Shown piece after piece: positions 24,168-24,520 of a stretch of DNA of 64,000 nucleotides (within the stretch, counting starts at the first letter, position 1; the number at the start of each line of letters is the position of its first letter). The position numbers were made by a program, and so were the translations under genes. Below the pieces are notes generated by a model. It was not told the origin of the DNA. It saw only the letters and a program-made list of their open reading frames with translations, and did no database searches. Origin of the DNA: Octopus vulgaris. Taxonomy: Eukaryota. The stretch covers positions 38,130,001-38,194,000 of the forward strand of contig OX597825.1 in assembly GCA_951406725.2 (NCBI GenBank). Reading direction: 5' to 3'.

Positions 24168-24520
24168 CGTATTTTTGCCATTTCAATATGGCTAACCCCT
24201 AAGGGTGGATGCTACTGTAGTTTTTAGCCCCAGGAGGACACACTCCTCCAGCTGGCCATAGACACACTATCTGTGTCCTGTCAGTATTTGCAAAGGGAAG
24301 TCATCCTTCCCGTCTTCAACTTATGATACACACGGACTCGAGTTTCGAGGTATTGACCTCTCGTCAGCGTGTGACAATCATAGTTGTCGCCGAGAATTAG
24401 ATTTCCTTCACAAATACTTATACTTTTTCCAGCGTCCACTGTCGCTGATATTGAAAAAGTGAAATCAAACAATGATAAATATCAAAGTGAGTTATATACA
24501 GTAGCGGTAACACATCGTGA
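24165..24520 (-). mobile_element. Single-arm copy of the 20143 family in (TA)n, carrying an intact hammerhead
   Basis: 24168-24335 is the reverse complement of 20330-20494; TA runs lie on both sides. Confidence 0.8.
24329..24373 (-). ncRNA. Minimal type-I hammerhead ribozyme, structurally intact (Penelope-type)
   Basis: Minus strand reads cacacg-CTGACGA-gaggt caat acctc-GAAA-ctcgag-TC-cgtgtg. Perfect 6-bp stem I, 5-bp stem II, complete core, palindromic stem III (actcgagt), GUC cleavage triplet. Confidence 0.88.

Follow-up and report, generated by a model that had tools for sequence, protein, structure and literature searches.

The window, i.e. the whole stretch of 64,000 nucleotides of Octopus vulgaris DNA that was analysed (contig OX597825.1, positions 38,130,001 to 38,194,000), contains on its minus strand a short insertion with a complete hammerhead ribozyme, flanked on both sides by (TA)n. 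The features of this insertion are the following, in positions of the window.

24120-24163, no strand: (TA)n target on the 3' side of the element (sequence)
24164-24525, minus strand: whole insertion, 362 nt long, with a 5' end at unit position 345; it comprises one unit and the adjoining 9 nt of the unit before it
24164-24516, minus strand: 353-bp non-coding unit (sequence comparison, fold)
24164-24170, minus strand: fixed 3' end T0, where reverse transcription is inferred to start first; located within a small hairpin loop when the unit is folded as a circle (insertion ends, fold)
24317-24386, minus strand: hammerhead with predicted extended stem I, i.e. internal loop and distal helices (fold)
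24329-24373, minus strand: hammerhead type I core, unit positions 144-188 (descriptor, Rfam)
24334-24335, minus strand: predicted cleavage site after C17
24336-24346, minus strand: GAAA and palindromic stem III, the latter at 24343-24336 (sequence, fold)
24347-24360, minus strand: stem II with G10.1-C11.1 and a 4-nt loop (descriptor, fold)
24361-24367, minus strand: core CUGACGA, C3 to A9 (sequence)
24466-24473, minus strand: second fixed end ("tail", unit positions 44-51), used by other copies and internal here (insertion ends)
24526-24548, no strand: (TA)n target on the 5' side of the element (sequence)

The hammerhead was first noticed in a sequence-only reading of the window, which claimed that core and stems I and II are intact. 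This was borne out by the inspection of the sequence and by a structural descriptor. Read from 24373 to 24329, the motif has all core positions of CUGACGA, GAAA and GUC, a stem I of 6 bp and a stem II of 5 bp that includes G10.1-C11.1 and is closed by a 4-nt loop. An 8-nt palindrome spans A15.1 to U16.1 and is followed by GUC. All characters of type I, the core CUGANGA/GAAA/UH, stems I to III with G10.1-C11.1 and an open-ended stem I, were found. The descriptor gave this single match in the window and none in 100 block-wise dinucleotide shuffles. In a search with 301 nt, the Rfam model RF00163 (Hammerhead_1) matched exactly 24373-24329 over its full length (model positions 1-45) with 32.2 bits and an E value of 2e-6, which is significant, although the score is just below the gathering score of 34 bits. 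All core positions agree with the model and the loop of stem II is near the consensus; besides the score, the 5 bp of stem II are a difference. Among the 150 of 247 matches listed in the Rfam scan of the whole window the motif is absent. When RF00163 was searched in the genome and 73 of 263,217 candidates were scored, six matches were obtained, none of them related to the 353-bp unit. Canonical type I hammerheads above the Rfam cut-off and unrelated to the unit were observed at L161 (45.5 bits) and L165 (34.2 bits).

Since C17 is at position 24335, the cut is predicted between 24335 and 24334, exactly where it had been placed before. The predicted fold prolongs stem I via an internal loop into distal helices (24386-24317), which the sequence-only reading had missed. 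The minimum-energy fold retained stem I and favoured a different core (−23.6 vs −17.7 kcal/mol), with a pair probability of about 0.3 for stem II. Energy models of this sort give the hammerhead core no score, and therefore the unfavourable core fold is taken as a caution and not as a refutation. In the monomer, stem III consists of 2 bp and a 4-nt loop, whereas the dimer is predicted to form an 8-bp self-duplex of −10.7 kcal/mol. The palindromic stem III noticed earlier is thus confirmed, and the activation by dimerisation that had been suggested is possible. It is perhaps unneeded, since a 2-bp helix III with a tetraloop is typical of invertebrate hammerheads and the monomers of coral and mussel were cleaved efficiently (PMC7229834, in excerpt); by this analogy, dimer activation may be unnecessary here. 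In the excerpted text of bioRxiv 10.64898/2026.07.22.740005, only one of nine predicted Xenopus retrozyme dimers was cleaved in vitro.

The 353-bp unit has a GC content of 42.5% (150/353 G+C). It contains no frame of at least 100 aa, and its overlapping short frames gave no Pfam match; on the basis of frames and Pfam it fits the retrozyme criteria of a non-coding element with no LTR structure. Folded as a circle, the 353 nt reached −116.9 kcal/mol compared to −82.5 ± 5.1 kcal/mol for shuffled sequences (z −6.8), of which 0 in 100 were equally low, and the fold was stronger on the hammerhead strand than on the opposite strand (−100.3 kcal/mol). The extra 9 nt of the insertion are a terminal redundancy and no target-site duplication.

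The hammerhead turned out to be the cargo of a young dispersed repeat, a feature that was also missing from the sequence-only reading. The genome (2.8 Gb) contains 407 exact occurrences of the 45-mer, often 353 bp apart, and the control gave none. The copies are dispersed across many chromosomes, are 5'-truncated and have no poly(A) tail. Units of at least 300 nt showed a median identity of 98.6% to the unit at 24164-24516 (n=52, a position-ordered sample). In head-to-tail arrays, which reach five or more units and have no ORF, the hammerheads are spaced by 353 bp. Over 361 nt the copy at 24164-24525 is 100% identical to five other dispersed places and is therefore very recent. It lacks the two or more consecutive hammerhead units that define an "active" locus (Li et al. 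2026). Other loci of the family have them, and the copy was therefore filed as a monomer derivative. Because it has a single ribozyme, it cannot release a unit-length RNA by itself.

The sequence-only reading had suggested that the ribozyme cuts a host RNA transcribed from the minus strand. An intact core could indeed cut any minus-strand transcript that runs through it, but an adoption by the host is hardly credible for a copy so recent that it is found unchanged at five dispersed places. No host gene was found in the window when 153 frames (14 + 139) were compared to Pfam, with 65 of 215 filtered frames and exons shorter than 55 aa outside the scan. The only matches were a LINE reverse transcriptase, zf-RVT, a Mos1 HTH and one match below the cut-off, which speaks against a host function, although the site may lie in a large intron. 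A regulatory role of the hammerhead at 24373-24329 in a host gene is improbable. On the plus strand, a LINE-type element whose RVT_1 and zf-RVT frames are broken lies at 9496-14616 and a fragment of a mariner (Mos1-type) transposase HTH at 41058-41327. Of 24 sequence data sets listed, 20 contain the unit, and none of them is recorded as RNA. A single 383-nt contig, free of differences, represents the unit in two runs presumed to be RNA. Its 353-nt "go back" joint was set aside as evidence for a circle: the joint was also present in the DNA-like run X15, and therefore it cannot distinguish a circle from tandem DNA or a multimer. Among the runs checked, the unique flank at 24817-25720 was covered only in X15, and this was likewise set aside as evidence.

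The anatomy of the insertions was analysed at 100 loci in three sets, namely the 30 best full-length matches, 40 position-ordered hammerhead matches and 30 T0-anchored matches; the samples are thus biased to full-length, hammerhead-intact or T0-ended copies. After 29 loci had been dropped as duplicates, 71 were kept. Four distinct places (L028, L139, L150 and L153) were dropped wrongly, and the dropped L005 and L082 are near-identical duplicates at other coordinates. A flank of (TA)4 or longer was found on at least one side of 68 of the 71 insertions and on both sides of 59, and target-site duplications are indistinguishable within (TA)n. In 36 of the 71 insertions two arms are joined 5' to 5', and 32 of these pair T0 (unit position 353) with a tail end (44-51). 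The other 35 are one-armed; 28 of them stop at T0, 3 at the tail and 4 at other positions. The 3' ends are therefore fixed at two sites 44-51 nt apart, whereas the inversion points vary. More than half of the arms (66/116) are longer than one unit, and the lengths of the two arms are uncorrelated (Spearman −0.14, p=0.45, n=30). Genome-wide, 224 exact junctions of T0 and TA were counted. Run X15 showed (AT)n loose ends at 24468 and 24471, i.e. at tail positions. A copy outside of (TA)n was observed at L106, by eye with an apparent target duplication of about 12 bp. In each of the pairs L004/L005 and L082/L083, which are separated by 6 kb and 1 Mb, the two insertions are nearly identical and share their inversion point; they represent segmental or assembly duplications.

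The window also contains older relatives of the unit.

20134-20550, plus strand: two-armed copy of an older 357-bp sister family; the inverted arm 20134-20271 ends at T0 and the forward arm about 40 nt past T0
20293-20337, plus strand: sister-family hammerhead with C.A at the base of stem II (pair comparison)
57938-58216, plus strand: third, more diverged two-armed relative; the forward arm stops inside the hammerhead

The 357-bp sister family is 78.6% identical to the 353-bp unit over the 3' 220 bp, and it has the two fixed ends T0 and tail as well. Its hammerhead at 20293 had been described as differing from the one at 24373-24329 in mostly pair-preserving ways. This holds for six of the eight pairs that differ among 18 pairs in distal stem I and stems I, II and III. 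Two pairs are broken, and one of them is the conserved G10.1-C11.1 at the base of stem II, where C.A is found instead; the 20293 copy therefore fails the structural descriptor. The mismatch is present throughout the sister family: in the first 100 of 122 matches, counted by eye in a pattern search built to exclude the young family, position 10.1 was C in 87, T in 11, G in 1 and A in 1, and position 11.1 was A in 99. The first distal 5-bp helix of the extended stem I is retained in the older family with one compensatory change. The axolotl hammerhead HHR_Amex2, whose stem II is likewise mismatched at its base, was cleaved to 22% in an hour (PMC7229834, in excerpt). The identity of the 20293 hairpin as a MITE was rejected, since the inversion points vary and tandem partial copies exist. 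Two long near-perfect hairpins at 17202-17310 and 21047-21189 are probably MITE-like and gave only chance matches to miRNA models.

Were the repeat a satellite or MITE-like sequence spreading as DNA, or a SINE mobilised by a LINE, the hammerhead would be a passenger. The two-armed copies do resemble hairpin MITEs, a LINE reverse transcriptase is present in the window, and the sister family has spread despite the mismatch at the base of stem II. Against such an origin stand the variable inversion points combined with 3' ends at two fixed sites, the lack of poly(A) and the spread of 5'-truncated copies over many chromosomes, and we regard it as very improbable. The 353-bp repeat with its hammerhead is most likely a non-LTR retrozyme, and with good confidence one that is mobilised in trans by a Penelope-like element (PLE).

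PLEs were found in the genome starting from a PLE fragment beside one copy of the unit. Many open frames of 784 aa with a reverse transcriptase and a GIY-YIG domain are present, and several have a second upstream ORF. RVT_1 scored 34.5 bits, above the cut-off, and GIY-YIG 20.1 bits, below the cut-off of 22.6. In this search 150 of 22,754 candidates were scored and one PLE family was sampled. A CX4CxxC motif precedes the nuclease of the sampled PLE, which fits the description of Neptune/Nematis in the excerpted PMC8557442. The sampled PLE has its ends at two TA-flanked positions that are separated by about 31-35 nt; 25 and 13 ends were counted for them, with repeated loci included. Its terminal repeat does not match the 353-bp unit: of 40 PLE loci compared, none matched except for the chimeric L051. 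That no autonomous PLE with the unit was found in this sample counts against the retrozyme mobilised in trans. The loci L121-L130 (e.g. L130:918-4546) represent a young PLE family with the 784-aa frames and an upstream ORF of about 446 aa that cannot be clearly assigned in Pfam. In the terminal repeat of this family there is a hammerhead-like motif of the minimal sort, and its core has U3/A8. In the window, a two-armed remnant with a PLE 3' region and terminal repeat was seen at 28930-30260, and a degenerate remnant of a PLE ORF at 43363-44795 on the minus strand, which ends in (TA)n near 43000.

The unit could also be the pseudo-LTR of an autonomous PLE family outside the sample, with the copies being its truncated ends mobilised in cis. 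All end features of PLEs are present in the unit, Xenopus retrozymes resemble pLTRs (bioRxiv 10.64898/2026.07.22.740005, in excerpt) and the sampling was narrow (150/22,754 candidates). Against this stand the head-to-tail arrays of up to five or more units without an ORF and the sampled PLE itself, which carries the minimal hammerhead-like motif and not a canonical one. A search of the retrozyme loci for PLE protein gave matches in only three (L016, L112 and L153), and in the two that were inspected, L016 and L112, the PLE has its own end, which is different from that of the unit. We therefore consider a pseudo-LTR unlikely, and the retrozyme mobilised in trans is preferred.

The chimera L016/L051 is an inverted insertion in which a PLE arm, ending at its own tail, meets 5' to 5' a retrozyme arm that begins at the hammerhead. 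It is weak support for mobilisation by a PLE: a frameshift is present in the PLE arm, which differs by about 3% from a sampled relative, and the retrozyme arm, nearly identical to the unit, ends at position 103 and not at T0. The ages of the two arms seem different. At L112:1-1760 a retrozyme array and a PLE copy that belongs to another family abut directly at the PLE's 3' end, and (TA)n is missing between them. A co-insertion of retrozyme and PLE was considered for the chimera L016/L051 and for the adjacent elements at L112 and L159 and rejected, since a shared target is the better reading. A T0 motif common to PLE and retrozyme was also dropped, because the PLE ends map elsewhere.

Because the family is young, the insertion ends and the variants of each unit can be read directly, and they report on the RNA that was copied. 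Within 5 nt of the cut site (positions 178-188) we found 4 of 105 5' ends where 3.3 are expected, i.e. no pile-up, and 132 arms cross the cut site intact. Of 30 T0-anchored arms 23 pass the cut site, and two of the seven shorter ones stop at 185 and 189. The cleaved linear monomer is therefore not the usual template, and the template is uncut or re-ligated RNA. For common substitutions, the units of an insertion were all concordant in 54 of 56 cases. Among 101 private variants at places covered at least twice, 82 were confined to a single unit, 16 recurred in every unit (11 insertions), and 3 were found in some of the units. The share of A>G, for which RNA editing was considered, was 4/16 in the shared and 7/82 in the single-unit variants (Fisher p=0.08). 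Nine private variants in six insertions are common to both arms. The two arms of an insertion therefore go back to a single template or a single source locus, in keeping with a circle or a uniform multimer. In L102, a variant is present in the first unit of both arms and missing from the second, and in L137 and L091 a variant is found in one unit per arm, offset by one unit. These three, out of 13 insertions picked by hand, speak for a non-uniform multimer as the template and against a strict monomer circle; gene conversion between the arms is an alternative explanation for their partial-unit variants. The multimer signal agrees with the in vitro preference of the Anolis Poseidon element PAc, for which unprocessed RNA was the main substrate and hammerhead cleavage was unneeded for insertion (PMC11167929, in excerpt).

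For the trans-mobilised retrozyme the following route can be proposed. The arrays would be transcribed and the ribozyme would cut the multimers to monomers that may be ligated into circles, in analogy to what excerpts of PMC7229834 and PMC4209133 describe. The PLE protein would nick both strands of a (TA)n tract, and each nick would prime a cDNA on the same RNA, at either of two internal sites that are separated by about 46 nt. Both cDNAs could then join 5' to 5', or one of them could get lost. The template would be either a re-ligated circle or an RNA that had not been cut, at least sometimes a multimer. The copy at 24164-24525 would be a one-armed T0 product that ran for one unit and 9 nt. 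A bolder version, quite possible though we would not call it probable, is that the young arrays are a record of retrozyme insertion. Both nicked strands would be primed by the PLE protein at two fixed sites of a single RNA, and the phasing of variants unit by unit would show this RNA to be sometimes an uncut multimer instead of the monomer circle assumed in the current model, so that the hammerhead is bypassed at insertion.

Both the non-LTR retrozymes of animals and their connection with PLEs are already published. The mobilisation by PLEs was proposed in PMC7229834, and Li et al. 2026 (bioRxiv 10.64898/2026.07.22.740005) supported it by co-occurrence and pLTR similarity, with the mechanism "to be elucidated"; both sources are cited from excerpts. 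Among the papers listed in our literature search, none describes a cephalopod retrozyme, and the main text of PMC13282606 contains neither "ribozyme" nor "retrozyme". Thousands of such hammerheads exist in animal genomes and the motif alone is ordinary; the value lies in the family. It supplies a 353-nt substrate and candidate enzymes from one genome for an in vitro test in the style of PMC11167929, and the question of circle or multimer is decidable from the phasing of the arrays in this genome.

The 353-bp family is a further animal non-LTR retrozyme of the known type. In common with the others, as far as the excerpts of PMC7229834 and bioRxiv 10.64898/2026.07.22.740005 describe them, it has a non-coding tandem unit of 150-450 bp with a GC content below 50% and high self-pairing, one type I hammerhead per unit and PLEs in the same genome. 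The mussel units are of similar size (350-390 bp), and the mismatch in axolotl HHR_Amex2 resembles that of the 357-bp sister family. It differs in belonging to another sequence family and in being known from genomic DNA and not as circular RNA. Also, its arrays are short and dispersed, and about half of them are two-armed with two fixed ends in (TA)n; the main text of PMC7229834 does not use the word "inverted". Inverted arms, fixed ends and (TA)n targets are properties of PLEs, for which tandem and inverted insertions, a tail of 30-40 bp and a bias to microsatellites were described (PMC8557442, in excerpt). For PAc, the tail corresponds to the gap between two internal start sites of reverse transcription, and both target strands are nicked and extended (PMC11167929, in excerpt). 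Compared to the PLEs of these two sources, the octopus family thus shares the tandem and inverted insertions, the tail, the AT-rich or microsatellite targets and a template that is uncut at the hammerhead. In contrast to them, the 353-bp unit has no ORF, its tail spans 44-51 nt instead of 30-40 nt, and its hammerhead is canonical and not minimal, with the cut site 171 nt upstream of T0.
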